The translations under genes and the position numbers were made by a program. Shown here in pieces: positions 8,353-42,125 of a DNA stretch of 64,000 nt (its first letter is position 1; each line of letters begins with the position of its first letter). The DNA comes from Actinomycetota bacterium. GTDB taxonomy: Bacteria; Actinomycetota; Geothermincolia; Geothermincolales; RBG-13-55-18. The notes beneath the pieces were generated by a model that did not search any database, was not told where the DNA came from, and worked only from the letters and a program-made list of their open reading frames with translations. The stretch spans positions 1,544 through 65,543 of the forward strand of contig JABLXL010000005.1 in NCBI GenBank assembly GCA_013178005.1, read 5' to 3'.

Positions 8353-8599
8353 CTCTCTGCCCTCCCTCTTCCGTTCACGGGACGTCCGTCTTGGCGTTCG
8401 CGGACAGGCGCGGGGATGGAACGAACGTGGGACGATGGCATCTCATGTGATCTCCAAAGCCGCGACCTTGCAGCCATTATACTACGGGCCATCGCCGGGA
8501 TTATCGGCCAGCTATCGCGGGTTCGCTCCGGATCGCGTAGACGAAGTGAACTTCACGCCTGTATAAAACCGCGGGGCATGAAGGCGCCGCGCGGCGTGG

Positions 8600-25405: not shown

Positions 25406-26422
25406 ATGGGAGACGTGAAAAGCGTGGCGTGGTTCTGCGCCTACACTCCCCTGGAGATCCTGGACGCCGCGGGGCTCGCGCCCGTGCGCCGGTTCGGCGA
25501 CCCCGCGAGCCTGGAGGCCGCCGACGCCGTCCTGCACCAGGCCATCTGCCCTTACGTCCGCGCCTGCCTGGCGGCGGCCATGGACGGAAGCGCGCCGACG
25601 CCAGGGGATAACCATCACCATGCCGTCTTCGTCAATTCCTGCGACGGCATGCGCCGGCTGCACGACGCCTGGCAAGCGCGCTTCCCGAAGGACTTCGTCT
25701 TCCTCATGGACCTGCCGCGCAACGAGGATTCCGCGGGAGAACGCCTCCTGGCGGGGGAATTCGTCCGCCTGGCCGAGGCCCTGGAGGCCTTCACGGGAAG
25801 CGCCATTGGAGCGCACGCCCTGCTGGAAGCCGCGCGCGGGCGAGAGGAGCGGCGCCTCGCCTACCTGGAAAGCTCTCGCGGCCTGTCCGGTGCGGGGCGC
25901 CTGCGCCTTGCCATGGCTTTCCAGTCCTCGCCCGCCACAGAAAAGCCGGTGCCGGGAACGGGGGTGGCGCGGGCAGGCGGCGTGCCCGTGCTCCTCACCG
26001 GGAATCTCCTCAACCCGGAGGGCCTGGTATCGGTGCTGGAGGAAGCGGGCGCCGCGGTGGTGCGCGTGGACCTGTGCAACGGCGACCGCGCCTTCTCCTC
26101 CCCCATCCTGGCCACGGGGGACGGCCTCGAGGAGGTATGCCTCTCGCTTGCCCGGGGATACCTAGATCGCAGGCCTTGCGCGCGCATGACGGACGCGCGC
26201 CGGCGCCTGGACCTGCTGGTGGAGGAGGTGCGGGAGACGGGGGCGCGAGGGATCATCTACGCCGGCCTGAAGTTCTGCGACTCCTACCTTTACGATTTTC
26301 CCCGCGTGCAGAGGAGGCTACGGGAGGAAGGCGTCCCACTGTTGCGCCTGGAGAGCGACTACGCCGACGGACACGTGGGCCAGCTCCTCACCCGCGTGGA
26401 GGCTTTCCTGGAGATGATATGA
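25406..26422 (+). CDS. 2-hydroxyacyl-CoA dehydratase / benzoyl-CoA-reductase BcrBC-family subunit (HGD-D family), smaller subunit
   Basis: HGD-D family cysteine pattern (FCAYTPLE..., C..C clusters). ATG with an AAGGGAG RBS. Co-directional with the next subunit. Confidence 0.65.
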   Translation: MGDVKSVAWFCAYTPLEILDAAGLAPVRRFGDPASLEAADAVLHQAICPYVRACLAAAMDGSAPTPGDNHHHAVFVNSCDGMRRLHDAWQARFPKDFVFLMDLPRNEDSAGERLLAGEFVRLAEALEAFTGSAIGAHALLEAARGREERRLAYLESSRGLSGAGRLRLAMAFQSSPATEKPVPGTGVARAGGVPVLLTGNLLNPEGLVSVLEEAGAAVVRVDLCNGDRAFSSPILATGDGLEEVCLSLARGYLDRRPCARMTDARRRLDLLVEEVRETGARGIIYAGLKFCDSYLYDFPRVQRRLREEGVPLLRLESDYADGHVGQLLTRVEAFLEMI

Positions 26423-26662
26423 GCAGGGCGATGGGGAGTATGTCGCGGAGCGGGAGGATAAGATGGGACTGGTCGAGGACGTAAGGGACCGCTACGTAGG
26501 CAGTATCTCAGCCGCCAATTTGAATCACACGGCTTAATCAAGGGTGACTCTAGAGGACGTGGGTATTGGGGAGAAGAGAAGTGGAAGAGGGCAAGTCTCG
26601 GTCTTTCCTTGAGATGATATGAGCAGGGCGATGGGGAGTATGTCGCGGAGCGGGAGGATAAG

Positions 26663-27919
26663 ATGGGACTGGTCGAGGACGTAAGGGACCGCTACATAGA
26701 GAAGCTGTCGCCCGGCACCTTCCGATCCCGCGTGTTCTGGAAAACTGTGGAAACCCTCGCGCGCTCGCCCCTCAACCGCCCGCAGTGGAAAGCCGACCGC
26801 GTCTCGCTCTCCTACTTCATACGCGCCACGCGCGACGCCTACCTGCGGCGCGCGCCGGTGGTGTGGAGCAACCTACTGGTCCCCAGCGAGCTCATCCTGG
26901 GCTCGGGATGCATCCCCTTCTACCCCGAGATGGCCGCGGCGGTGGTGGCCTCGGCGGGGCTCGCGCCGCGCTTCATCGACCGCGCCGGCGAGGAAGGATT
27001 TTCCTCCGACGCCTGTTCCTACCACCGCTGCGTGCTGGGATGCGCCCTGGATGGTTTCCTGCCCGAGCCGGACCTCCTGCTCACCGTCAATTACCCCTGC
27101 GATTCCGCCCCCCTTTCCTTCTCCTTCGCCTCCGATCTCTACGGCGCGCCTCACCGCGTCCTCGACGTTCCCCTCCACGAGGACCGCGAGTCCCTGGGCG
27201 TCCTGGCGGAGCAGATGGAGGAGGCGGCGGCTTTCATGCTCTCCCTCTCCGGCCTAACGGCGGAGGAGGGCGGTGATAAGCTGCGGGAGGCCCTCGGCTT
27301 CTCCAACCTCGCGTTGCGCCACATGCGGCGGGTGGAGGAGCTCCGCAAGCGCGACGACTGCACCCTAGACGGCAAGGACGCCATGGGAGGGATCAGCGTG
27401 CTTGCGGGGAGCATGGGCTCGCGCGAGGGGGCGGAGTACTACCGCCTGCTGGCCGACGAGCTCGAGGAGAGGGGTTGCGCGGGCGGCGGAGCGATCCGCC
27501 TCATGTGGATGCACCTCAAGCCTTGGTACGCCCAGGGCATCTTCGACGCCCTGGAGCGCCATGGAGCCCGCCTGGTCTGCGAGGAATACACCCACGCCAC
27601 GTGGGAGGAGCTGAACGCAGCGGAGCCCTACGCGTCCCTTGCCCAAAAAGTGGCGGGGCATTTCCTGGTGGGGCCGGCGGAGAGGCGGGCGCGCCATCTC
27701 GCCCGCCTGGCACAGGACTACCGCGTGGACGGGGCCATCCATTACAACCACTGGGGCTGCCGGCAGAGCTGCGGGGGAGCCATGCTGGTCAAGGAGGCCC
27801 TGCAGGGGATCGGGGTTCCGGTGCTGACCATCGACGGCGACTGCGTGGACGAGCGCGAGTACCAGGAGGGACAGCTCTCCACCCGCCTGGAGGCCTTCCT
27901 GGAATCCCTCAAGGCCTAG
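26663..27919 (+). CDS. 2-hydroxyacyl-CoA dehydratase-family subunit (HGD-D family), larger subunit
   Basis: HGD-D family similarity throughout (YHRCVLGC..., IHYNHWGCRQ). No activator (HgdC-like ATPase) is present in the window. Confidence 0.65.
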   Translation: MGLVEDVRDRYIEKLSPGTFRSRVFWKTVETLARSPLNRPQWKADRVSLSYFIRATRDAYLRRAPVVWSNLLVPSELILGSGCIPFYPEMAAAVVASAGLAPRFIDRAGEEGFSSDACSYHRCVLGCALDGFLPEPDLLLTVNYPCDSAPLSFSFASDLYGAPHRVLDVPLHEDRESLGVLAEQMEEAAAFMLSLSGLTAEEGGDKLREALGFSNLALRHMRRVEELRKRDDCTLDGKDAMGGISVLAGSMGSREGAEYYRLLADELEERGCAGGGAIRLMWMHLKPWYAQGIFDALERHGARLVCEEYTHATWEELNAAEPYASLAQKVAGHFLVGPAERRARHLARLAQDYRVDGAIHYNHWGCRQSCGGAMLVKEALQGIGVPVLTIDGDCVDEREYQEGQLSTRLEAFLESLKA

Positions 27920-28061
27920 GGGTCAAGGCTGGCCATCGGCCTAAGGTAGTCCTAGGCCTAGGGGTCAAGGCTGGCCATCGGCCTAAGGTATACATCCTTT
28001 GCTTTTTAGGCCTAGGGGTCAATTAGGCCTAGGGGTCAAGGCTGGCCATCGGCCTAAGGTA
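27913..28061. repeat. three tandem REP-like palindromic repeats (AGGCCTAGGGGTCAAGGCTGGCCATCGGCCTAAGGTA)
   Basis: Three near-identical roughly 37-bp units with irregular spacers (5 and about 34 bp). They overlap the hgdA-like stop and the transposase stop. Confidence 0.8.
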
Positions 28062-29070
28062 TACATCCTTTGCTTTTAAGAATCTGCAGAACGCCCGCCT
28101 CGTCGGCAAGCAGCCTTGCCCGCATCCCCTTATCCTCATCTAAGCACTTGTTGAATCTCAAGTAGCGATGTGAGGCAGCGTTTTCCTTAATCCCGCCTAT
28201 CACCTTTGCGATATCGTCGAAAGAGGTGAGAGTATATTCCCTAGCCATATGGATAAGTAAATTACATGCATAACGATATCTCTTGTCTGCCCGATAGCTC
28301 CCATGCTCCAGGCTGTCTATCCCGAGATGCTCGCAAATAGCTTCTAGAACCTCGTCGAGGGAGGGGATCCTCGTCAATTCTTTATGCCCAATCAAACCCT
28401 TAGACCATTTTTCTTGCCTTATGCTTGCTTTGATTCGCCTGAGAAATGCATCGCTGCCCAGAAGCGCCTGTGCAACGACTTTGTGATCAGAAGGATAATT
28501 ATTTTCCTCTCCTAAGGCATTCTCGACAAAAGCCTGATATTCCCTGCCAGCTGGCTCGCTGCCACAGCCAAAATACTCCTCCAGCCATGATGAATCGAAC
28601 CAGCCCCCAGCGGTTCCATTGATGCAATCGCGATAGTTTGACCAGTTATAATCCTCAGGCCGTTCGACCACGCCCGCCTCCACAGGGTTTAGGTGGATAT
28701 AGCGGTTGACGATGAGGAAATACTCCTCTTCGTCTATGCGGATCGCCTTGTACCTGCCGGCAAACACATGTCCCACCCAACCGCCCCTGACAAGGAAGTT
28801 CGCATACGACGAGCCGAGAAAATGCATAAATTCGTGCAGGTTCTCAATGGTGATACGTAGCGAGAGGTGATAGTGATTATCCATGATGCAGAACGCGAAG
28901 ATGTCGATCATGTATTTTTGCGCTCCTCTGCACAGGAGATCGAGGAAATATTTCTTGTGGCTCTCCCCTGTCAGGATATCAAGCTTGAGGTTTCCGCGGG
29001 AGAACACATGAAACACTGCTCCCTTTTCCTGAATTCTTAATGTTCTAGTCATGACCATTATTATAACCAT
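28054..29070 (-). CDS. IS200/RAYT-like HUH tyrosine (Y1) transposase with a C-terminal extension
   Basis: HuH motif HYHLSL and catalytic-Tyr region (AGRYKA). Low GC relative to its surroundings. Confidence 0.7.
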   Translation of the reverse strand: MVIIMVMTRTLRIQEKGAVFHVFSRGNLKLDILTGESHKKYFLDLLCRGAQKYMIDIFAFCIMDNHYHLSLRITIENLHEFMHFLGSSYANFLVRGGWVGHVFAGRYKAIRIDEEEYFLIVNRYIHLNPVEAGVVERPEDYNWSNYRDCINGTAGGWFDSSWLEEYFGCGSEPAGREYQAFVENALGEENNYPSDHKVVAQALLGSDAFLRRIKASIRQEKWSKGLIGHKELTRIPSLDEVLEAICEHLGIDSLEHGSYRADKRYRYACNLLIHMAREYTLTSFDDIAKVIGGIKENAASHRYLRFNKCLDEDKGMRARLLADEAGVLQILKSKGCIP

Positions 29071-29328
29071 GTTATGTATGTTGTAAATATGTATTGTATT
29101 TGATTATCTTTGATGTGAGGCTTGTAAGTCTCTCTTCCAGCACTTTCCGCTTCTATGAGGCTCTATACTTCGCTTCGTTAAATGAACCTCATGAATGAGC
29201 TTTTCTTGGAATCCGGCGGGTCCCTCCGGCTAGAACGATTCCTAATTCTAATTTAGTCTGTCACTCACCTGCTCAACGCCCTGAAAAGCATTCTATAGCG
29301 GCTTCTAATGTCCGATAGCCCTGGCCCC

Positions 29329-29362
29329 TTGGCCTTAGGCCGATGGCCAGCCTTGACCCCCA
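29329..29362. repeat. REP-like repeat in inverted orientation (right boundary of the transposase unit)
   Basis: CCTTAGGCCGATGGCCAGCCTTGACCCC is the reverse complement of the 27913-28061 units. Confidence 0.8.
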
Positions 29363-29469
29363 GGCCAGTCCCCCAGGCTACCAGGCCTTAATGCATGGGG
29401 CGGTGGGAGACGGTAAAATGAGATAGCTGTTCTGGTCACGCTTCGGTTCTCGCCCGGGAGGTGTTCGAG

Positions 29470-30045
29470 ATGAAGAAGGCGTCTACGCTTCTGCTCTCGT
29501 CTTTGCTGGCCGTGTCGCTGGCTTTCGCCCTGGCCGGATGCGGGCAGAGCAGCGAGGACAAGGCCTTGAGGTTTATCGGCAGGGGCGACGCCAGCGCGTA
29601 CCGCATGGCCAGCGAGGGACAGAGGATGAGCGACGCCCTCCAGGAGTTCTTCGATGTCCTGCAGGGCCCCAACCCCCAGGCCATCGTGGAACCCGGCGGA
29701 CCCCTGGAAGAATACGAGGACGCCCGGGAGGAGATGTCCTCCTACGCCGCCAGGGCGGAAGCGGAGTTCCAAGGCGTGCTCGACCTGGGCGGCGTCGAGG
29801 AGGAGAAACAGTACGCCACCATGATGATCGAGGTGGCAAGCAAGACAAAGGAGTTGGCCGGCTTCGTGGAGGAGTGGTTCAACAAGGCCCTGGACGTGAT
29901 CAAGACCCTGGACGAGAAGAAGATCCGGTCCTACCTCACCGGCGACGAGTTCGAGGGCGGGCTCGCCGAGATAGACGAGATGAAATCAGAGATCGACAAG
30001 CTGGCCGGCAAAGCCAAGGACTACCGCCTGGAAAACGATTTTTAG
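29470..30045 (+). CDS. hypothetical lipoprotein
   Basis: Signal peptide plus lipobox LAGC with a GGGAGG RBS. Acidic and coiled body. Confidence 0.45.
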   Translation: MKKASTLLLSSLLAVSLAFALAGCGQSSEDKALRFIGRGDASAYRMASEGQRMSDALQEFFDVLQGPNPQAIVEPGGPLEEYEDAREEMSSYAARAEAEFQGVLDLGGVEEEKQYATMMIEVASKTKELAGFVEEWFNKALDVIKTLDEKKIRSYLTGDEFEGGLAEIDEMKSEIDKLAGKAKDYRLENDF

Positions 30046-30046
30046 C

Positions 30047-30874
30047 ATGCGGGGAAGGAGAACAGTGGTGTTGAGGGGGCTGCTTGCAGCGAGGGGCGGA
30101 AGGCGATGGGCGTTATTCGCGCAGCTCGCGGTGGCCTGCGCGCTCGTCGCCGCGCTCGCGGTCGGGCTCGCCTCCTGCGGAGGGGAAACCCCTACCGCGC
30201 GTGAACCCCAGGCCGAGGCCGAGGGCGGCGAGGGCGGGGTGAGGCTGCCCCCCGGCCTGAGCGAGGAGGACCTGGAGGGGCTGAACCTTCAGGACCTCGA
30301 GGGGGGCGCGGGGGGCTCCGCCGGCGGCGGGAGCGCGCAAGGGACGGAAGGCCGGGAGGCGCCCGATCCCGCGCGCACCGCCGAGATCTCCGGCGCGCGC
30401 TTCACCGTGGTCGACGTGACCAGGAACGACTCCAACAAGAAGGTCATCGCCTCCGGCCAGAGGGAAGTCCTCGGCGACTACCTGGAGGTGGAGCTGGCGG
30501 TGGAGAACGTGGGCGACGGCCTGGTCGATTTCTCCCAGTACTCCTTCCGCCTCGAGAGTCCCAGCATCCAGGCGGAGGACTACCGCTCCTATTACGGCGA
30601 CAACGGCGTCCTGGGAAAATATGTATCCGACCACACCATCTCCGCCGTCCTCCTGGATTACGCCGACCTCACGCCGGTGCTCTACAAGCTCAAGCGCAAG
30701 GAGGTCCTGGAGGGCGTCTTCCTCTTCTACGACCTCAACCCGCAGAGCGCGGAGGAGAACGCGGGCTTCACGGCCGACATCGCCGGCGGCCAGGCCTTCC
30801 TGGTCATCCACAAGGCGCGGGGAGAGGACGCCGGCGAGGAGGTAAGGATCGGGCTCGCCGGGCTCATGGATTGA
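30047..30874 (+). CDS. lipoprotein, DUF4352-like (typically partnered with MacB/FtsX-type ABC exporters)
   Basis: Lipobox LASCGG and a Gly/Glu-rich linker. The C-terminal beta-rich domain resembles DUF4352. Upstream start is uncertain. Confidence 0.45.
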   Translation: MRGRRTVVLRGLLAARGGRRWALFAQLAVACALVAALAVGLASCGGETPTAREPQAEAEGGEGGVRLPPGLSEEDLEGLNLQDLEGGAGGSAGGGSAQGTEGREAPDPARTAEISGARFTVVDVTRNDSNKKVIASGQREVLGDYLEVELAVENVGDGLVDFSQYSFRLESPSIQAEDYRSYYGDNGVLGKYVSDHTISAVLLDYADLTPVLYKLKRKEVLEGVFLFYDLNPQSAEENAGFTADIAGGQAFLVIHKARGEDAGEEVRIGLAGLMD

Positions 30875-30971
30875 GACCGGCGCGGGAGGCGGCTTACATG
30901 CGGTTGACGAAATGGGGCCCGGAAACGCCCTCCCTCCAGGCGGCCATCTCCGCGGAAAGGCGGCGGACATG

Positions 30972-32480
30972 CGCTCCATAAGGAGGGGGTTCAAGAGCTT
31001 CCGGCGCCACCCCGTGGGCAACCTCATCGTGGTCCTGCTCCTCTTCGTCTGCCTCACTTTCTCCCTCTCCATGCTGGTGGTGAGGCTGGCGGCGGAAAGC
31101 CAGGTCAGGAGCATCAAGCGCAGCGTGGGCAACTACGGCGAGGTGAGGGTGAGCTCGGAATATATCCTGGAGGTCTTCGAGCGGGAGCTGGAAAAGGGGG
31201 AACGCCAACGAAACCGCGAGGCCCGCAGCATGAACGAGGAGGAGGAGCTCGCGGACCGGGCGAAGTTCCACCTGCCGGAGGAGATCGCCGACGCCTTCTC
31301 CCGCCAGGAGCACATCCTCACCTACGACAAGGTGATGAACGCCGGGATCATCGTCCTCAACGCCGTTAACTCCGAGCTGGCCCCCCTGGCGCCCTACGCC
31401 ACCGACGCGGAGCTGGCGCGGCAGGGCATCGAGGGTCTGAACCGCCAGACGCTGAGCAACCTCTTCGTCTTCGAGGGCAACACCAACGGCGCCTCCGCCT
31501 CCGATTTCCTCAACGGGAGCAAGCGCCTGGTGGAGGGCTCCTTCTACACCTACCGGGATCACCTGGAGAAGAAACCGGTGGTGCTGGCGGAGAAGAACAT
31601 GGCCGAGGAGAACGACCTGGGGATCGGGGACACGGTGGAAGCGGTGGTGGTCCGCGGGAGCAGGAACAACCGCACCATGGAGCTCGAGATCATCGGGATC
31701 TACGAGACGGTGCTGGCGGAGCGCGACAGCGGGAGCATCCTCGATTACAACCCGGCCGGCAACAAGCTCTTCGCCCCCCTCTCCGTAGTGCAGGAGCTCA
31801 ACAGCATGCCGGGCTACGTGGAGTTGGGCTCCTACTACTTCGACGACGTGGACAGCACCGCCGCCCTCAAGGAGGCCTTCGAGCAGGAGTTCGCGGAAGG
31901 GAACAGGTACGAGTTCCTCACCGACTTCTCCGATTACGAGAAGATCTCCGAGCCCCTGGAAAAGGTTGGCAAGACTTCCCTTATCGGCCTGGCGGGCGCC
32001 CTGGGAGCCTGCGCCCTCATCATCCTCCTGGCCATGGCCATCATCATCGGCGGCAGGACCAGGGAGCTGGGGGTGCTCAAGGCTATCGGCGCCACCGGGC
32101 GCCAGGTCATCCTGCAGTATGCAGCAGAGGTGACATGCATCTGCCTGGTGTCGGTGATCCTCGCCACCGGGGCCACCGTGCTCATCAGCCAGGGCATCGG
32201 CAACTGGCTCCTCTCCAGCAGCACGGAGCAGAAGGTGGAGGAGAAGGAGACGAGGGCGTACACCGGCAACTACCTCTCCGATCGCAAGCTGTACAAGGAG
32301 GGAGGGCTCTATTCCCCCGCGTCCGAGGAGGAGGAAGCGGTTAACCTCAACGTCATCTACCAGGGCGACCTGCTCGTCTACGGCATCCTCATCCTGCTGG
32401 GGATAAGCCTGCTGGGGATGGCGGTCCCGGTGATCTGGATAACCAGGCTCAGGCCGGCGCGGGTCCTGAGCATGGAATAA
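30972..32480 (+). CDS. ABC transporter permease, FtsX/MacB-like (4 TM plus a large periplasmic domain)
   Basis: N-terminal TM, a long extracytoplasmic domain and a C-terminal FtsX-like 3-TM bundle (GVLKAIGATGRQV). Confidence 0.75.
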   Translation, partial: RSIRRGFKSFRRHPVGNLIVVLLLFVCLTFSLSMLVVRLAAESQVRSIKRSVGNYGEVRVSSEYILEVFERELEKGERQRNREARSMNEEEELADRAKFHLPEEIADAFSRQEHILTYDKVMNAGIIVLNAVNSELAPLAPYATDAELARQGIEGLNRQTLSNLFVFEGNTNGASASDFLNGSKRLVEGSFYTYRDHLEKKPVVLAEKNMAEENDLGIGDTVEAVVVRGSRNNRTMELEIIGIYETVLAERDSGSILDYNPAGNKLFAPLSVVQELNSMPGYVELGSYYFDDVDSTAALKEAFEQEFAEGNRYEFLTDFSDYEKISEPLEKVGKTSLIGLAGALGACALIILLAMAIIIGGRTRELGVLKAIGATGRQVILQYAAEVTCICLVSVILATGATVLISQGIGNWLLSSSTEQKVEEKETRAYTGNYLSDRKLYKEGGLYSPASEEEEAVNLNVIYQGDLLVYGILILLGISLLGMAVPVIWITRLRPARVLSME

Positions 32481-32494
32481 GGGGAGACGCGCGC

Positions 32495-33184
32495 ATGGAA
32501 AACGCGCTGCAGGTAAAAAACCTGAGCAAGACCTTCAAGGCCAAGGCGGGGGACGTCGTCGCCGTGGACGGGGTGAGCTTCGAGGCGCGCAAGGGCGAGG
32601 TGACGGTGATCGTGGGCCCCTCGGGCTCGGGCAAGACCACCCTGCTCTACCTCATCGGCTCCCTGGAAAGCCCCGACCGGGGCGAGATACGCGTCTTCGG
32701 CGAGGACATCGCCACCTCCGGCGCCGACCTCATCCAGTACCGCAGGGTCAGGGTGGGCTTCGTCTTCCAGTTCTTCAACCTCATCTCCGCCCTGACCGCG
32801 CTGGAAAACGTCACCCTGCCCATGGACCTGAGGGCCGTGCCCGCCGGGGAGCAGCGCGCCAGGGCGGTCGAGCTCCTAGAAAGGATGGGCATCGACGCCA
32901 GGCTGCAGCGGACAAAAGCCAACCGCATGAGCGGCGGCGAGAAGCAGCGGGTGGCCATCGCCAGGGCCATGGCCAACGACCCCGACATCATCCTCGCCGA
33001 CGAGCCAACTGGGAACCTGGACTCGGCCACCGGGCGCGTGGTGGTGGACATCCTGGTCAAGCTGGCGCGCGAGGACGGGAAATGCGTGATCATCGTCACC
33101 CACGACGAGAGCATCCTGGAGGTCGCCGACCGCGCCTTCCACATGATGGACGGGAAGCTCACCGACCACAACAGGGACGGCTGA
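32495..33184 (+). CDS. ABC transporter ATP-binding protein (MacB/LolD-type)
   Basis: Walker A GPSGSGKTT, Q-loop, signature MSGGEKQR, Walker B ILADEPT and H-loop. Confidence 0.85.
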   Translation: MENALQVKNLSKTFKAKAGDVVAVDGVSFEARKGEVTVIVGPSGSGKTTLLYLIGSLESPDRGEIRVFGEDIATSGADLIQYRRVRVGFVFQFFNLISALTALENVTLPMDLRAVPAGEQRARAVELLERMGIDARLQRTKANRMSGGEKQRVAIARAMANDPDIILADEPTGNLDSATGRVVVDILVKLAREDGKCVIIVTHDESILEVADRAFHMMDGKLTDHNRDG

Positions 33185-33280
33185 GCGGGCGCGGGACGGG
33201 GGCTCGAGCGCGCGCAGCAAAGGGGCGTGAGTCGGCGCCGCGACGGGCGTTTCCTCGAGGCTATCGAGAAGTGACCATAG

Positions 33281-33425
33281 TCCTTAGGCCGGGCCTCAGA
33301 CCTGAATAGGCCCTCGATTCGAATTCCGGGCCTGACCCCCGGACCTCAGGCCGATGGCCAGCCCTGACCCCCAGGCCACGGGCCTCAGGCCGATGGCCAG
33401 CCCTGACCCCAAGGCCTGAGGGGAA
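33281..33425. repeat. cluster of REP-like repeats (variants of GGCCGATGGCCAGCCCTGACCCC), at least two full copies
   Basis: Same family as the units flanking the RAYT element, about 4 kb away. They lie immediately upstream of a truncated-looking GyrI-like ORF. Confidence 0.7.
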
Positions 33426-33831: not shown

Positions 33832-35067
33832 ATGGCGATGAGGGGGTTTGCCGCAACGGCGCTTTCAGCCATCCTCTTCCTCGCCCTGGCCTGCGGCTGC
33901 GGCGGGCAGAAGCAGGCGGTGGAAGAAGAGCCGCGGGACGAGTATGCCCAGGTTCCCGAGGAGTATCGGGACATCTACGTGGAGCTGGAAGCCAAGCTCT
34001 CCGAACTCAACCGCCACCTCGACGAGGTACAGGCCGGCGAGACGCGGGATACCGTCTTCAGTGTCGAGCTCGTCACCGCCAACGCCAACCGGGGCGAGAG
34101 CCTGCTGGAGCCCATGACCCTGCACGCCATCGCGAAGACCCTCGACCGCCTCCAGGACATAGGTGTGACGGGGATAACCCTGAGCGTCAACTACCCCTTG
34201 CTTAACGCCGATTTTCCCCGCTCGCCGGAATACATCGATTTCTATCGCCGGGTCGCGACGATGGTGAAAGCGCGCGGCTTCGCCCTGATCGTGGAGACCA
34301 CCACCGTCTTCCCCAACCCCGAGATATCCGGCCTGGGAGTGGACTACGCGGGGCTCACCCTCGACCAATACATCAGCGGCAAGCGGGCCATGGCCGAGAC
34401 CATCATCAGGGAACTCGCGCCCGACTACCTCACGGTGGAGAACGAGCCCGGGACCCAGCGGTCCAACACCGGACTCGATCTCTCGGTGGCGAACCAGACC
34501 GCGGTGGTGAACGGCATCCTGTCGGGCCTCGACCGCTCCGGGACGAGGATCGGCGCCGGGGCCGGGTCCTGGGATAACCTCGCGTATTTCGAGAGCCTCG
34601 CCGCCAACACCTCCCTGGACTACCTGGACGTCCACTTCTACCCCATCCAGGGCGACCTGGTGATCGACCGCGCGGAGCGCATCGCCGAAATCGCCCGCTC
34701 CGGCAGCAAGGACATGGCCGTGAGCGAGTGCTGGCTGTACAAGGCGTCGAGCGCGGAGCTGGCCTCCGGCCAGGACATCGCCACGGCCGCCGACACCTTC
34801 GCCCGCGACGCCTATGGCTTCTGGGCCCCTCTGGACCAGGACTTCCTGGAGGTGATGGTCAAGCTCTCCCGCCATCTGGAGCTGGAGTTCATGTCGCCGT
34901 TCTGGATGCAGTACCTCTTCGCGTACCTGGATTACGATCCCGCCATGGCGGAGCAAGGGTACGCCTGGGTGCAGAAGTCGGTCGCCAACAGGACCCGGAT
35001 CGAGATACAGGCAGGCAACCTCTCGCCCACGGGTGAGGCCTACCGCGACCTCATCTCCGGCGACTGA
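33832..35067 (+). CDS. secreted lipoprotein, TIM-barrel glycoside-hydrolase-like (GH-A clan; NEP acid/base motif)
   Basis: Signal peptide plus lipobox LACGCGG. LTVENEPG resembles the GH5-type catalytic acid motif. Confidence 0.45.
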   Translation: MAMRGFAATALSAILFLALACGCGGQKQAVEEEPRDEYAQVPEEYRDIYVELEAKLSELNRHLDEVQAGETRDTVFSVELVTANANRGESLLEPMTLHAIAKTLDRLQDIGVTGITLSVNYPLLNADFPRSPEYIDFYRRVATMVKARGFALIVETTTVFPNPEISGLGVDYAGLTLDQYISGKRAMAETIIRELAPDYLTVENEPGTQRSNTGLDLSVANQTAVVNGILSGLDRSGTRIGAGAGSWDNLAYFESLAANTSLDYLDVHFYPIQGDLVIDRAERIAEIARSGSKDMAVSECWLYKASSAELASGQDIATAADTFARDAYGFWAPLDQDFLEVMVKLSRHLELEFMSPFWMQYLFAYLDYDPAMAEQGYAWVQKSVANRTRIEIQAGNLSPTGEAYRDLISGD

Positions 35068-35311
35068 TTCCGCACAACGGAGCGCGTGGGCCACCAGGCG
35101 CCGAGGAAACGGGTTCACGTTCCAGGTCTGCTGCTTTTTTTACGTCGCTCGCTTCGCTTGGGGCGAGGTATCAATGTTGAAATGTGAGCGGACTTCATGA
35201 CCATGCAACGTCCGCCTCACGTGACATATAACGCAGCATTTGCTCCCGAGAGTTTTACGTGCATTCTAGGGAGCATCTCTTATGCGCCCATTTCTACATG
35301 GACAGTTTCTG

Positions 35312-35639
35312 CTAATAAACTTGTGAGTCTATCCAGTCTTCGAATCTCATCGGTATGTATTCAAGTTCGATATCGGGAGACCTTCCGCTAACAATACGAC
35401 TGAGGAACTCGAAGTAGGCCTTTTCGTCTGGATTAATAAACCTGAATTTCTTTTCGCCCGACGCCCCTCTCGCCTTCCTGGATTGCTCTAAAGCACTCCT
35501 CATCATCGCCCAGATTACTATCGATCAGCCTGGATACCCTCGCTTTTTTCATCATCTCGGGGAACAACCCGGCAACCGTGGGGATGCCCAGATGAGCCGA
35601 GAAGCCGGCGCCGATGATGTAAACCCGCTTATCCGCCAT
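35312..35639 (-). pseudogene. frameshifted N-terminal remnant of a Rossmann-type gene (SIR2-like or FAD/NAD-binding; GAGFS...GIP motif) in a low-GC patch
   Basis: Two overlapping short ORFs in different frames (35433..35639 and 35312..35506). MADKRVYIIGAGFSAHLGIPTVAGLF resembles the N-terminus of SIR2-like or dinucleotide-binding proteins. Local GC is well below the window average. Confidence 0.35.
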
Positions 35640-35842
35640 CCTGAATCGTCTCCTCGCCTTTTCCTTTCCGCCTCAACCGGCTGCTTTCCGTATTCTTCCT
35701 ATGCTTGATCCGATAATAGGCTCTTCCAATGACAAAAAACATCGAGCAGATAATCGTACAAACAGCCACGGCCCATGTGATAGACTCACATTACCTGGCA
35801 TAGAACAAGGGCGTGCAAGCGTAGAGTCACGGAGGTGGAATC

Positions 35843-37891: not shown

Positions 37892-37989
37892 GACGACCGC
37901 CCGGGGGTAAGGTGAGAACCGCGATTTGTACGGGAGACGGCCGTTATTCTATGCCTGGAAAGATTTGCCAGGCCCTCAGCTTCGGGCTT

Positions 37990-38470
37990 TCGGGCTTGGC
38001 CTACTCCCCGGCTACATCCGTTATCGGCCCGGGCCGGGCTGGCGGGCAAGAGCTGAAAACACGGGAAGGGCGGCCCTTGTTTCGTGACTTAAACGGAATT
38101 CCAGCCCACTGGCTCTGGGCTTTATCAACCCCTCGGCCACGTCCTCGTTCACCCGGGCCGGGCCGTGGGGCAAAAGTTGAAACATGGGAAGGGCGGCCCT
38201 TGTTTCGTGACTGGAACGGATTTACCAACCACCCGGCTTCGGGCTTGATCTGCCCCTCGGCTATATTCGTCATCAGCCCGAGCCGGGCCGGCGGGCGGAG
38301 ATGGGGAGCCTCCAGTCGCGGCCGAAGGCGCGGGGGGTGATCTTTATCCCCACCGGGGCCTGGCGGCGCTTGTACTCGTTGGCGTCCACGCGCCGCACCA
38401 CCTCCTCCACCAGCGCGCGGTCGTTCCCCGAGGCGGCCATCTCCTCCACCGCGAAGCAGTCCTCGATACC
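37990..38470. repeat. left copy of a roughly 480-bp duplicated block: tandem ~125-bp structured sub-repeats plus a pseudo-copy of the nadE 3' end
   Basis: 38282-38470 matches 40360-40550 (the nadE 3' end); near-identical for about 95 bp, then diverging. Preceded by units ending ...GGGCCGGGC(T)GGCGGGC-AAGAGCTGAAAACA-GGGAAGGGCGGCCCTTGTTTC. Confidence 0.8.
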
Positions 38471-40042: not shown

Positions 40043-40360
40043 CCCGGGACGGATTTCCGAGCTCCCGGCCATGGCGGGGAGTTGACCCCTTCGGCTTCCT
40101 CCCTCGCCCACCCCGGTCAGGTCATAGGGCAGAAACTGACAGCATGGAAGGAAAGCCATTACATCCTGCTTGGAACTGATTTCCAGCCCACTGGCTGCGG
40201 GTTTGATCGACCCTTCGGCCGTATCCGTTATCCGCCCGGGCCGGCGGGCAAGAGCTGAAAACATGGGAAGGGCGGCCCTTGTTTCCTGACTGGAACAGAT
40301 TCCCAACTCCCGGCTCCGGGCTTAATCGATCCCTCGGCCGTATCCGTCATCCGCCTGGGC
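40043..40360. repeat. right-hand set of tandem ~110-125-bp structured sub-repeats immediately downstream of nadE
   Basis: Units share ...ATCGA-CC-TCGGCCGTATCCGT-ATCCGCC-GGGCCGGGC-GGCGGGC. One unit carries the AAGAGCTGAAAACATGGGAAGGGCGGCCCTTGTTTC hairpin tail. Confidence 0.75.
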
Positions 40361-42125
40361 CGGGCCGGCGGGCGGAGATGGGGAGCCTCCAGTCGCGGCC
40401 GAAGGCGCGGGGGGTGATCTTTATCCCCACCGGGGCCTGGCGGCGCTTGTACTCGTTTGCGTCCACGCGCCGTACCACCTCCTCCACCAGCGCGCGATCA
40501 TGCCCCATGGCGACCATCTCCTCCACCGTAAGGCCGTTCTCGATGTATCCCTCGAGAACGGGATCCAGGAGCTCGTAAGGCGGCAGGGAATCGGTGTCCC
40601 TCTGGCCCTCGCGCAGCTCCGCCGACGGCTCCCTGGAGATGACCGCCTCCGGTATGATTTCCCCGCCCTCCCGCTCGTTGATATAGCCGGCAAGCCGGTA
40701 CACCTCCTTCTTCAGGAGGTCCTTGATCACCGCGAACCCCCCGGCCATGTCGCCGTACAAAGTGCAATACCCCATGGAAAGCTCGCTTTTGTTGCCGGTG
40801 GCCAGCACCAGCCAGCCCCGGCTGTTGGAGACGTTCATGAGCAGGTTGCCCCGGATGCGCGCCTGCAGGTTCTCCATGGCCAGCGATCCGCCAGGACCCT
40901 TCAATGAGGAGCCGGCGGCACCCGCGTAACCTTCCATTATCGCATCGATCTCGAAGACCTCGAGAGAAATCCCTAGGTTACGAGCCAGCGCCTCCGCGAT
41001 CTCGCGGGATAGCTCCGAGGTGAACCTGGAGGGCATGAAGACGGCGTGCACTCTCTCCGGCCCCAGCGCCATGGCGGCTAGGGCGGCGGTGAGGGCGGAG
41101 TCCACGCCTCCCGATAGCCCCAGGACCACGTCGGTGAACCCGTTCTTGCGCACGTAGTCGCGCAACCCGAGCAGCAGCGCCTGGTATATCTCCTCCTCCT
41201 CCTCCCTTTCATGTGTTTCCCCGTACTGCTGTATATTGATGTTAAGGGTCGGGCGCTCTCCCGTGGACGGACCCCGTTGTCCACCCAGATCGACGACCCG
41301 CGTTGGTTCCGGGAGGGCGCCCTTCCTTGCGTACCTGTGCAGTGGCTTGGACATCCTCTCCGCCCATATCCCGGTCAGGTCCAGGTCGCACACCAGGAGG
41401 TGCTCGCGGAAGCGCGGGGAACAAGCGAGTTTTCCCGCCCTCGGATGCACGATCATGGAGCCGCCGTCCAGCACCAGCTCGTCCTGCCCGCCCACGCAGT
41501 TCACATAGGCGACGACCGCGAGGGAGTCGGCGGCCCTGGATTCCACGAGACGCTCGCGTATCCCCTGCTTGCCCCGGTGATACGGCGACGCGGAGATGTT
41601 GACCACCACCTCCGCTCCCCCGTACGCCACCTCCCGCTCCAGCGGACCCCCGGGGTACCAGATGTCCTCGCAGACGGTGATCCCCACGCGCACCCCGGCG
41701 ATGATGGCCACCAGGCCTTCACTCCCGGGCGCGAAGTAACGGTTCTCGTCGAAGACGCCGTAGTTGGGCAGGAAGCGTTTGCGGTAGGTGGCCACCACCT
41801 CTCCGCGGTGGACGAGTGCCGCGGCGTTGAACAAGTCCTCCGCTAGCTCGGGTGTCCCCACCACCATGGGCGTGTCTCCCACCTGACAAGCGAGATCGGC
41901 CAGCGCTGTCCGGCAGTCCTCGAGGAAGTCGCGCTTGAGCAACAGGTCCTCGGGTGGATAACCGCACAGGGCGAGTTCCGGAAAGCACACCAGGTCCGCC
42001 CCCATTCCCTCCGCCTCGCGCAGCGCCTCCAGGATACGCGCGCAGTTCCCACGGAAATCTCCCACCGTGGTGTTCACCTGCGCCAGGGCGATCCTCATCC
42101 CACAGTCACCCGCTTTCGAGGTCAT
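40347..42125 (-). CDS. nadE: glutamine-dependent NAD+ synthetase NadE (N-terminal CN-hydrolase/glutaminase domain plus NAD synthetase domain)
   Basis: Nitrilase-family domain (catalytic E-K-C context ...VCFPELAL...), then the PP-loop SGGVDS of NAD synthetase. An alternative start is at 42098. Confidence 0.85.
   Translation of the reverse strand: MTSKAGDCGMRIALAQVNTTVGDFRGNCARILEALREAEGMGADLVCFPELALCGYPPEDLLLKRDFLEDCRTALADLACQVGDTPMVVGTPELAEDLFNAAALVHRGEVVATYRKRFLPNYGVFDENRYFAPGSEGLVAIIAGVRVGITVCEDIWYPGGPLEREVAYGGAEVVVNISASPYHRGKQGIRERLVESRAADSLAVVAYVNCVGGQDELVLDGGSMIVHPRAGKLACSPRFREHLLVCDLDLTGIWAERMSKPLHRYARKGALPEPTRVVDLGGQRGPSTGERPTLNINIQQYGETHEREEEEEIYQALLLGLRDYVRKNGFTDVVLGLSGGVDSALTAALAAMALGPERVHAVFMPSRFTSELSREIAEALARNLGISLEVFEIDAIMEGYAGAAGSSLKGPGGSLAMENLQARIRGNLLMNVSNSRGWLVLATGNKSELSMGYCTLYGDMAGGFAVIKDLLKKEVYRLAGYINEREGGEIIPEAVISREPSAELREGQRDTDSLPPYELLDPVLEGYIENGLTVEEMVAMGHDRALVEEVVRRVDANEYKRRQAPVGIKITPRAFGRDWRLPISARRPGPGG

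Follow-up and report, generated by a model that had tools for sequence, protein, structure and literature searches.

A probable TIRtron at a variable junction in the genome of an uncultivated actinobacterium

The closest described relatives of the element considered here are insertion sequences and repeat-associated genes that encode transposases of the HUH-Y1 type. Members of the IS200/IS605 family, such as IS608 and ISDra2, have no terminal inverted repeats (TIRs) and carry subterminal hairpins together with a tetra- or pentanucleotide target; their transposases are about 130–150 amino acids (aa) long, with Gln rather than Asn four residues after the tyrosine (Y+4), and the elements are usually multi-copy. 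In REPtrons, such as those of Escherichia coli TnpA-REP (structure 4ER8) and of Pseudomonas RAYT Groups 2 and 3, a single gene for a REP-associated tyrosine transposase (RAYT) lies between inverted copies of a repetitive extragenic palindromic (REP) sequence that is also dispersed in extragenic DNA. The Asn at Y+4 is N119 in the E. coli enzyme (Quentin 2018, PMC6006769). Di Nocera, De Gregorio and Rocco (2013, PMC3733652) described RAYT-like genes with TIRs in place of GTAG-tagged REPs and named them TIRtrons; many of their TIRs share the motif GGGGWSAS, some overlap the 3' end of the gene, and others are members of repeat families of moderate abundance, present as singles, dimers or clusters. 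Within subclass 2.1 of these transposases, subgroup 2.1.2 has a C-terminus resembling the DnaA C-terminal domain (Bac_DnaA_C) and corresponds to Group 1 of the RAYT classification of Bertels, "probably" the TIR-associated tyrosine transposases, or TIRYTs (Quentin 2018, PMC6006769). Of the RAYT groups, Group 1 has the most members; the 16-mers that flank them number about 12 per replicon, 6.3% of the members are duplicated and 1.2% lie on plasmids, and it comes second to the IS200-like Group 6 in its likeness to insertion sequences (Bertels 2017, PMC5581495). Here we analyze a stretch of 64,000 nucleotides (nt) of contig JABLXL010000005.1 (the window), from an uncultivated actinobacterium related to Candidatus Solincola (Geothermincolia), a host unlike those of published TIRtrons, in which a Y1 transposase gene (28054–29052, minus strand) lies between inverted copies of a 34-nt repeat that we name TIR-A. 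With good confidence we assign this locus to the TIRtrons, as a single-copy TIRYT gene (RAYT Group 1, TnpAY1 subclass 2.1.2) flanked by its cognate TIRs.

The open reading frame (ORF) extends to 29070, but the true product probably has 332 aa, starting at the ATG at 29052, because homologues start at an equivalent MxRxLRI motif. An identical protein of 334 aa is on record from a metagenome-assembled genome (MAG) named "Actinobacteria bacterium" (HPY75_02660), and residue numbers given here follow that form. The match to the Pfam family Y1_Tnp (E 1.7e-7, 31.8 bits against a cut-off of 23 bits) places the protein among the HUH-Y1 enzymes, and the residues H62, H64, Y120, H122, N124 and P125, all of them present here, are invariant across 31 aligned homologues. 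Equally invariant is the motif RYIHLNPV, with Asn at Y+4 (YxxxN-P-V), as in the RAYT/TnpA-REP-like class 2. A search of the Protein Data Bank (PDB) with the single sequence gave no match and profiles were needed: that of the N-terminal half found 4ER8 at E 9e-4, with HYH aligned to HMH and RYIHLNPV to DYIYINPV, and that of the full family found DnaA domain IV at E 1.6e-9. The AlphaFold (AF2) model, with a mean confidence (pLDDT) of 82, agrees with these assignments, its best Foldseek match in the PDB being 4ER8 (E 5e-7, TM-score 0.77 on the target), followed by the IS200/IS605 transposases of ISDra2 and IS608 at E about 1e-4 or weaker. The preliminary description of this locus, made from the sequence alone, is thus borne out in its claim of a HUH-Y1 enzyme with its catalytic tyrosine, and the protein is closer to RAYTs than to IS200 transposases. 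Nonetheless, the protein is not a canonical RAYT equivalog, as the score against the NCBIfam model REP_Tyr_transpos (51.2 bits) is below the 80-bit cut-off; it is twice as long as REPtron enzymes and has an extra DnaA-like helix-turn-helix (HTH) domain. The latter gives only a weak Pfam match to Bac_DnaA_C as a single sequence (19.5 bits), but the modelled C-terminal domain superposes on the DnaA DNA-binding domain 3PVP (TM-score 0.80, root-mean-square deviation 2.0). On the basis of profile and model, the protein therefore has the C-terminal extension that characterizes subclass 2.1.2, or RAYT Group 1. The gene was also found in the Logan contigs L002 (1319 nt) and L003 (1102 nt), which are independent assemblies of the identical sequence ending at the flanking repeats, L002 spanning from repeat to repeat and L003 stopping in the repeat on the 3' side of the gene; such ends are expected if the 34-nt unit is repeated and longer than the assembler k-mer.

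The repeats on either side of the gene were defined from a 28-nt core, GGGGTCAAGGCTGGCCATCGGCCTAAGG, which has exact copies at 27919, 27961 and 28032 on the plus strand and at 29333–29360 on the minus strand, and with two mismatches at 33344–33371 and 33383–33410 (minus strand), that is, six matches against none expected from 100 shuffles. With its GGCCTN prefix the full unit of TIR-A has 34 nt, GGCCTAGGGGTCAAGGCTGGCCATCGGCCTAAGG. Three units lie head-to-tail on the left of the gene: unit 1 (27913–27946, plus strand), which holds the stop codon TAG (27917–27919) of a 2-hydroxyacyl-CoA dehydratase gene (26663–27919); unit 2 (27955–27988, plus strand), identical to unit 1; and unit 3 (28026–28059, plus strand), the gene-proximal TIR, which extends over the final sense codon of the transposase gene and its stop (TAG, 28054–28056). 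The right TIR (29333–29366, minus strand) differs from the left units by one mismatch, so that the two arms are 97% complementary, and just inside it there is a degenerate second unit, GGGGCCAGGGCTATCGGAC (29310–29328, minus strand), conserved in the metagenome contigs L001, L004 and L005. The arrangement of three copies facing one inverted copy, as well as the overlap with both stop codons, had been correctly noted in the preliminary description, which nevertheless missed part of the left array: this begins with two units 8 nt apart, followed by a relic of 20 nt copied from the transposase gene 3' end (TATACATCCTTTGCTTTTTA, 27989–28008, plus strand, 1 nt off the true 3' end at 28060–28079), a truncated unit of 14 nt (GGCCTAGGGGTCAA, 28009–28022, plus strand), TTA, unit and gene. 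The distal copies were likewise rightly reported, although the cluster spans 33325–33417 rather than 33281–33425 and comprises, all on the minus strand, a 15-nt partial unit (GGGGTCAGGCCCGGA, 33325–33339), which equals the first 15 nt of the TIR-B repeat described below, and two full units (33344–33417): one at 33344–33377, a G...G variant that is the commonest form among the metagenome copies, and one at 33383–33417, placed head-to-tail 39 nt from the previous and some 80 nt ahead of the probable start codon (ATG, 33498) of a GyrI-like gene. The outer ends of the units, which bear the GGGGTCA motif of the family, are GGGGTCAA in the gene-proximal copies and GGGGTCAG in the distal ones, with GGGG outermost on both sides, and the GC content of the repeats, unlike that of the gene, is similar to that of the host.

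A different picture from that of REP sequences resulted from the analysis of the unit itself. When units and arrays were folded as single-stranded DNA (ssDNA), the single units folded no better than shuffled sequences (z between −0.8 and +0.2), and TIR-A is therefore not a palindrome of the REP type; the idea of palindromic REPs, which came from the preliminary description, was dropped. No GTAG tag is consistently present at the TIR-A units, nor did we find a consistent tetranucleotide beside the unit ends that could serve as a target or cleavage tag. The clusters do not have the organization of bacterial interspersed mosaic elements (BIMEs) or of inverted REP doublets (REPINs), as the units run head-to-tail with spacings of 32–71 nt (39–71 nt in the window, 32–41 nt among metagenome copies and 41–63 nt in the related locus L013, with no inverted doublets among them) and the sole inverted TIR-A pair spans the gene; the BIME-like pairs that had been envisaged are consequently replaced by direct arrays. 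A scan with Rfam of the window and the related loci detected only tRNAs, and no match in the repeats or in the region upstream of the gene.

Taken together, the units are not significant palindromes and form head-to-tail arrays instead of inverted doublets, so that the locus is not the classical REP/RAYT pair proposed initially but belongs to the TIR-flanked branch with a DnaA-like C-terminal HTH. What it shares with the REP/RAYT systems are the HUH and Y-x3-N motifs, a catalytic fold that matches 4ER8 best, and the placing of one gene between inverted repeats that have further copies dispersed in extragenic DNA. The correspondence with the TIRtrons of Di Nocera and co-workers is closer, because the units start with GGGGTCAA or GGGGTCAG and have GGGG outermost on both sides: the protein has about 330 aa with a HUH-Y1 core and a Bac_DnaA_C-like HTH, the arms of 34 nt lack a significant hairpin, and a repeat overlaps the 3' end of the gene; the repeats occur in dimers and clusters and may form a moderately abundant family, as TIR-A on seven metagenome contigs and the dispersed cognate repeats of relatives would suggest. 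Two departures from the published pattern are that position 8 of the GGGGWSAS motif is A in the gene-proximal copies, a mismatch to S, and that the repeats of one relative (11 copies in 21 kb) look denser than "moderately abundant", as measured at that one locus only. Several observations weigh against the assignment. Quentin (2018, PMC6006769) saw no REP-like sequences near subclass 2.1 genes, and in the literature that we found no enzymatic activity, substrate or role is reported for subclass 2.1 or Group 1. Furthermore, the lack of a significant hairpin in the single unit is unlike the characterized Y1 substrates; a search of the 64-kb window with a profile of the repeat (nhmmer) found no TIR-A copy beyond this locus; and an exact 22-mer scan of 185,579 species genomes (one per species) hit a single contig, filed as a Thiobacillus MAG, in a collection that evidently lacks the source genome.

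We have analyzed four distinct loci with homologous genes, encoding proteins with 54–61% identity (L011, L012, L013/L014 and L015), and observed that each gene is accompanied by a repeat of its own. In L011 the gene lies between inverted copies of GGGGTCAGGCCCGGACATGGGAC (TIR-B), in L013/L014 between inverted copies of GGGGTCGGCCCTGGACTTATGCCTGAG, two on each side, and in L015 between inverted copies of GGGTCAGGGCTTGCCTGATGCCTGG, all of these repeats beginning with GGGGTC or GGGTCA. The GGGGTCA-initial repeat of L012, CCTTGGGGTCACGCCNGGAAATCGGCC, is present five times in 11 kb: three copies, all on the plus strand, adjoin the two gene ends, and the other two lie about 2 kb upstream, one of these inverted. 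The L013-type repeat has its 11 copies in 21 kb all in intergenic DNA, its clusters being head-to-tail, and four copies of the L011 type occur in the same 21 kb. Each gene variant in this clade thus pairs with its own repeat type, at least two of which are dispersed in extragenic DNA, and this pairing is functionally what had been meant by a REP/RAYT relationship. It also bears on the idea that the repeats are a native REP family of the host in which a foreign transposase gene landed, in the manner of insertion sequences that target REPs. The host-like GC content of the repeats, not shared by the gene, would agree with such an origin, but the presence of a specific repeat type around every homologue examined (inverted in three of the four loci, with a GGGGTC or GGGTCA outer end), the joint change of gene variant and repeat type at one junction (see below) and the agreement of the layout with published TIRtrons make it very improbable. 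Using a hidden Markov model (HMM) of the family against six-frame ORFs, no second Y1 gene was detected in the window or in any fetched locus, and this includes the second RAYT with host-like GC content that had been suggested.

TIR-A was also found away from the transposase gene. Seven contigs carry it in a metagenome scan, and with the distal copies of the window these show that the family exists apart from the gene, as the preliminary description had supposed. In L006 a methyltransferase gene has two units at its 3' end, and these provide its last codons and the stop (...PGGQGWPSA*; 1434–1508); L007 has two units near a tRNA gene and L008 has one; no Y1 gene is present on these three contigs. 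In L001 and L010 the units adjoin transposase genes of the IS110 family, and none of these five contigs has coding similarity to the window. REPs are known as targets of IS110 elements, and the two contigs suggest that IS110 elements target TIR-A repeats as well; that the repeats attract other elements is a further point in favour of a native repeat family invaded by a foreign gene. In L010 the IS110-family gene is at 515–1585 and the units at 8–90 and 1641–1661; in L001 the gene is at 385–1383, the units at 137–167 and 1669–1714, and a 144-nt direct repeat at 1–144 and 1376–1519. In addition, a segment made up of the right-hand unit, the degenerate unit beside it and some 60 nt of the upstream region (29258–29366 in the window) recurs at L001:1672–1937 and L005:948–1214, on contigs without a transposase gene; the two segments remain 77% alike over about 270 nt, and that of L001 is enclosed by a perfect 38-nt direct repeat (1627–1664 and 1792–1829). 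The units also supply the ends of host genes, as the dehydratase ends in ...SLQGQART* in L011 (5642–5661) and in ...SLKA* in the window (27913–27919), and in ...SLR* or ...SLH* at sites without an intact repeat.

Orthologous loci, located via the dehydratase gene, show hypervariability from one relative to another in the interval that separates this gene from the GyrI-like gene. The sediment-metagenome contig L004, one of the seven contigs of the repeat scan, has the same arrangement as the window, with the lipoprotein gene next to the element (86.6% nt identity), the right-hand unit, the upstream region (77.5% identity over the whole leader, 29053–29332) and the start of the transposase gene (93.7%); its segment 1225–1300 is an Illumina TruSeq adapter (AGATCGGAAGAGCACACGTCTGAACTCCAGTCAC...) that artificially truncates the transposase gene. 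L011 has at the same junction another variant of the gene (61% aa and 68% nt identity, the flanks being 82–91% identical in nt) with its own TIR-B. In both the window and L011 the element begins within 2 nt of one point, just after the Leu codon of ...ESL, and takes the place of the final dehydratase codon and its stop. At this junction the variant of the gene and the type of repeat switch together, being A in the window and L004 and B in L011. In L016/L017, whose flanks are 92–94% identical in nt, the transposase gene is missing and neither site has an intact TIR-A, but a degenerate TIR-A in the opposite orientation abuts the dehydratase stop. Exactly at the site of the gene, L016/L017 have a gene-less inverted pair of 26-nt repeats (8527–8552 and 8655–8680 in L016, 102 nt apart) of a third, GGGGYCAC type (TIR-C). 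Elsewhere on L016 (18024–18081) a further GGGG-initial family forms a REPIN-like doublet, GGGGTCAGGTCTTGTTTTTTGATACCCC, in which 28-nt repeats stand back-to-back and match perfectly. L018–L021 have in the interval an unrelated ABC cassette of the sugar type and no repeats, and in L022 nothing but 125 nt separates the dehydratase and GyrI-like genes. Since L016 lacks the gene and retains only a degenerate unit, a gain or loss has occurred among close relatives; the lipoprotein genes of the window, L004 and L016 are all equally far from one another (86.6–87.8% identity) and favour neither direction.

These presence/absence differences could also be explained by an autonomous insertion sequence, in which the whole block of TIR, gene and TIR (about 1.35–1.45 kb) moves as a unit; it would be a recent horizontal arrival, with the solo repeats as its footprints or miniature derivatives. 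Clearly, the AT-richness of the gene is strong, with 48.8% GC overall (remainder of the window, 64%) and 57% at third codon positions (neighbouring genes, 85–94%), and to this observation, already present in the preliminary description, can be added the absence of the element from L016/L017, the empty sites in L018–L022, the gene-less inverted doublet in L016, the complete identity of the three left units, and the rank of Group 1 as the most insertion-sequence-like after Group 6 (Bertels 2017, PMC5581495). However, the homologous genes of the four other loci have 48–54% GC against 59–64% for their hosts, and because they are equally AT-rich the low GC content is a trait of the family in these hosts rather than a clock. 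As, moreover, L004 shares element and junction although its adjacent gene has diverged by about 13%, the recent acquisition that had been deduced from the GC content is not supported. In fact, the gene has no second copy in the window or the fetched loci, and the identical protein is recorded from two short contigs only, both ending in TIRs. No target-site duplication is visible at the ends of the element; such duplications are usual in classical insertion sequences but not in IS200/IS605. Among 72,556 plasmid records only 16 carry homologues, all with at most 36% identity, phages gave a single match, and no transfer vehicle was identified among plasmid and phage records. We therefore consider an autonomous, recently arrived insertion sequence unlikely, and retain the assignment as a TIRtron.

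The fixed junction has a further aspect, which concerns the DNA beside the element. A cassette of four genes of about 4 kb on the plus strand (29367–33324, or 29367–33343 with the partial unit included), encoding a lipoprotein, a DUF4352-like protein, an FtsX permease and an ABC ATPase, has TIR-A copies in the same orientation on either side. The FtsX/ABC cassette is present in L016/L017, and the four-gene cassette is missing from L011, L018–L021 and L022; its position between direct TIR-A copies fits gain or loss by exchange between them. More tentatively, it is possible that several GGGGTC-initial families, each with its own TIRYT, are active at present in Geothermincolia-like actinobacteria, inserting repeatedly at one position past the last codons of a gene (here the end of the dehydratase, with TIR-A, TIR-B, or a relic of TIR-A beside a TIR-C doublet) and driving the gain and loss of cassettes bracketed by direct repeats. 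That different gene and TIR variants and gene-less TIR doublets share one nucleotide position in related genomes is unlike the published TIRtrons, although a hypervariable site visited by several repeat families is only a mildly unusual feature.

By homology with TnpA-REP and IS608 TnpA, a mechanism can be proposed in which the N-terminal HUH domain would cut and rejoin one DNA strand at the TIR units; the single-strand chemistry of IS200/IS605 transposases, with which the protein shares the HUH-Y1 fold, is presumed to apply. His62 and His64 would bind the metal and Tyr120 would act as the nucleophile, forming a covalent 5'-phosphotyrosine link. The conserved GGGGTC end is the likeliest point of cleavage or recognition, and the variable inner part of the unit, which changes with the protein, is the likeliest determinant of specificity, possibly read by the HTH that resembles DnaA domain IV. 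The gene would mostly stay in place, while TIR units would be copied to other intergenic sites, typically the 3' ends of genes, and accumulate there as head-to-tail arrays. Repeated cutting and rejoining could account for the perfect arrays of units in head-to-tail order, for the truncation of one unit and for the 20 nt copied from the gene 3' end and stranded among the units, and direct copies would permit gain or loss of the intervening DNA.

The locus is an ordinary further example of a known element type, the TIRtron, and its site in the genome of this uncultivated actinobacterium is unusually variable. It adds a member from a little-studied actinobacterial class to the largest RAYT-like group, and the relatives provide matched variants of gene and repeat at a single junction, a comparison of genomes that have the element with others that lack it, and a 4-kb transporter cassette between direct repeats, which are starting points for asking whether such enzymes spread repeats and remodel neighbouring DNA. 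If several families were active at one target position, the locus would be a natural system for studying how targets are chosen and what the DnaA-like domain contributes. With respect to annotation, the gene is better described as a TIR-associated (RAYT Group 1) tyrosine transposase than as an IS200 transposase or a recent foreign insertion.

Upstream of the transposase gene a candidate promoter, TTTACA-16-TATAAT (29060–29087, minus strand), agrees with the consensus at 11 of 12 positions, and L004 has retained both of its hexamers. As the promoter ends 7 nt before the ATG at 29052, a leaderless mRNA is probable. Further upstream there is an AT-rich non-coding region (29088–29309, minus strand) with no ORF and no significant fold, and RNA folding of the 296 nt from the inner end of the right TIR to the first codons gave no sign of a structured RNA (z −0.5).

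Other differences from L016 were noted in the vicinity. A 97-nt direct repeat (26403–26499 and 26603–26699), with copies 98% identical and 200 nt apart, extends across the start of the second dehydratase gene. Only one copy is present in L016, and the window therefore carries about 100 nt extra, flanked by a duplication of about 100 nt. A separate repeat family, with units of about 52 and about 70 nt and a period of about 124 nt, forms two blocks 2 kb apart (37986–38467 and 40193–40544) that are 89% identical over 243 nt, and L016 has an alpha-L-fucosidase gene at this place. Finally, an AT-rich segment of about 750 nt (35074–35827) is replaced by about 160 nt in L016 and lies inside a region (about 33832–35830) that is also missing from L011; it holds a short minus-strand ORF starting near 35640 (MADKRVYIIGAGFSAHLGIPT...), which resembles an N-terminal fragment of a larger gene.

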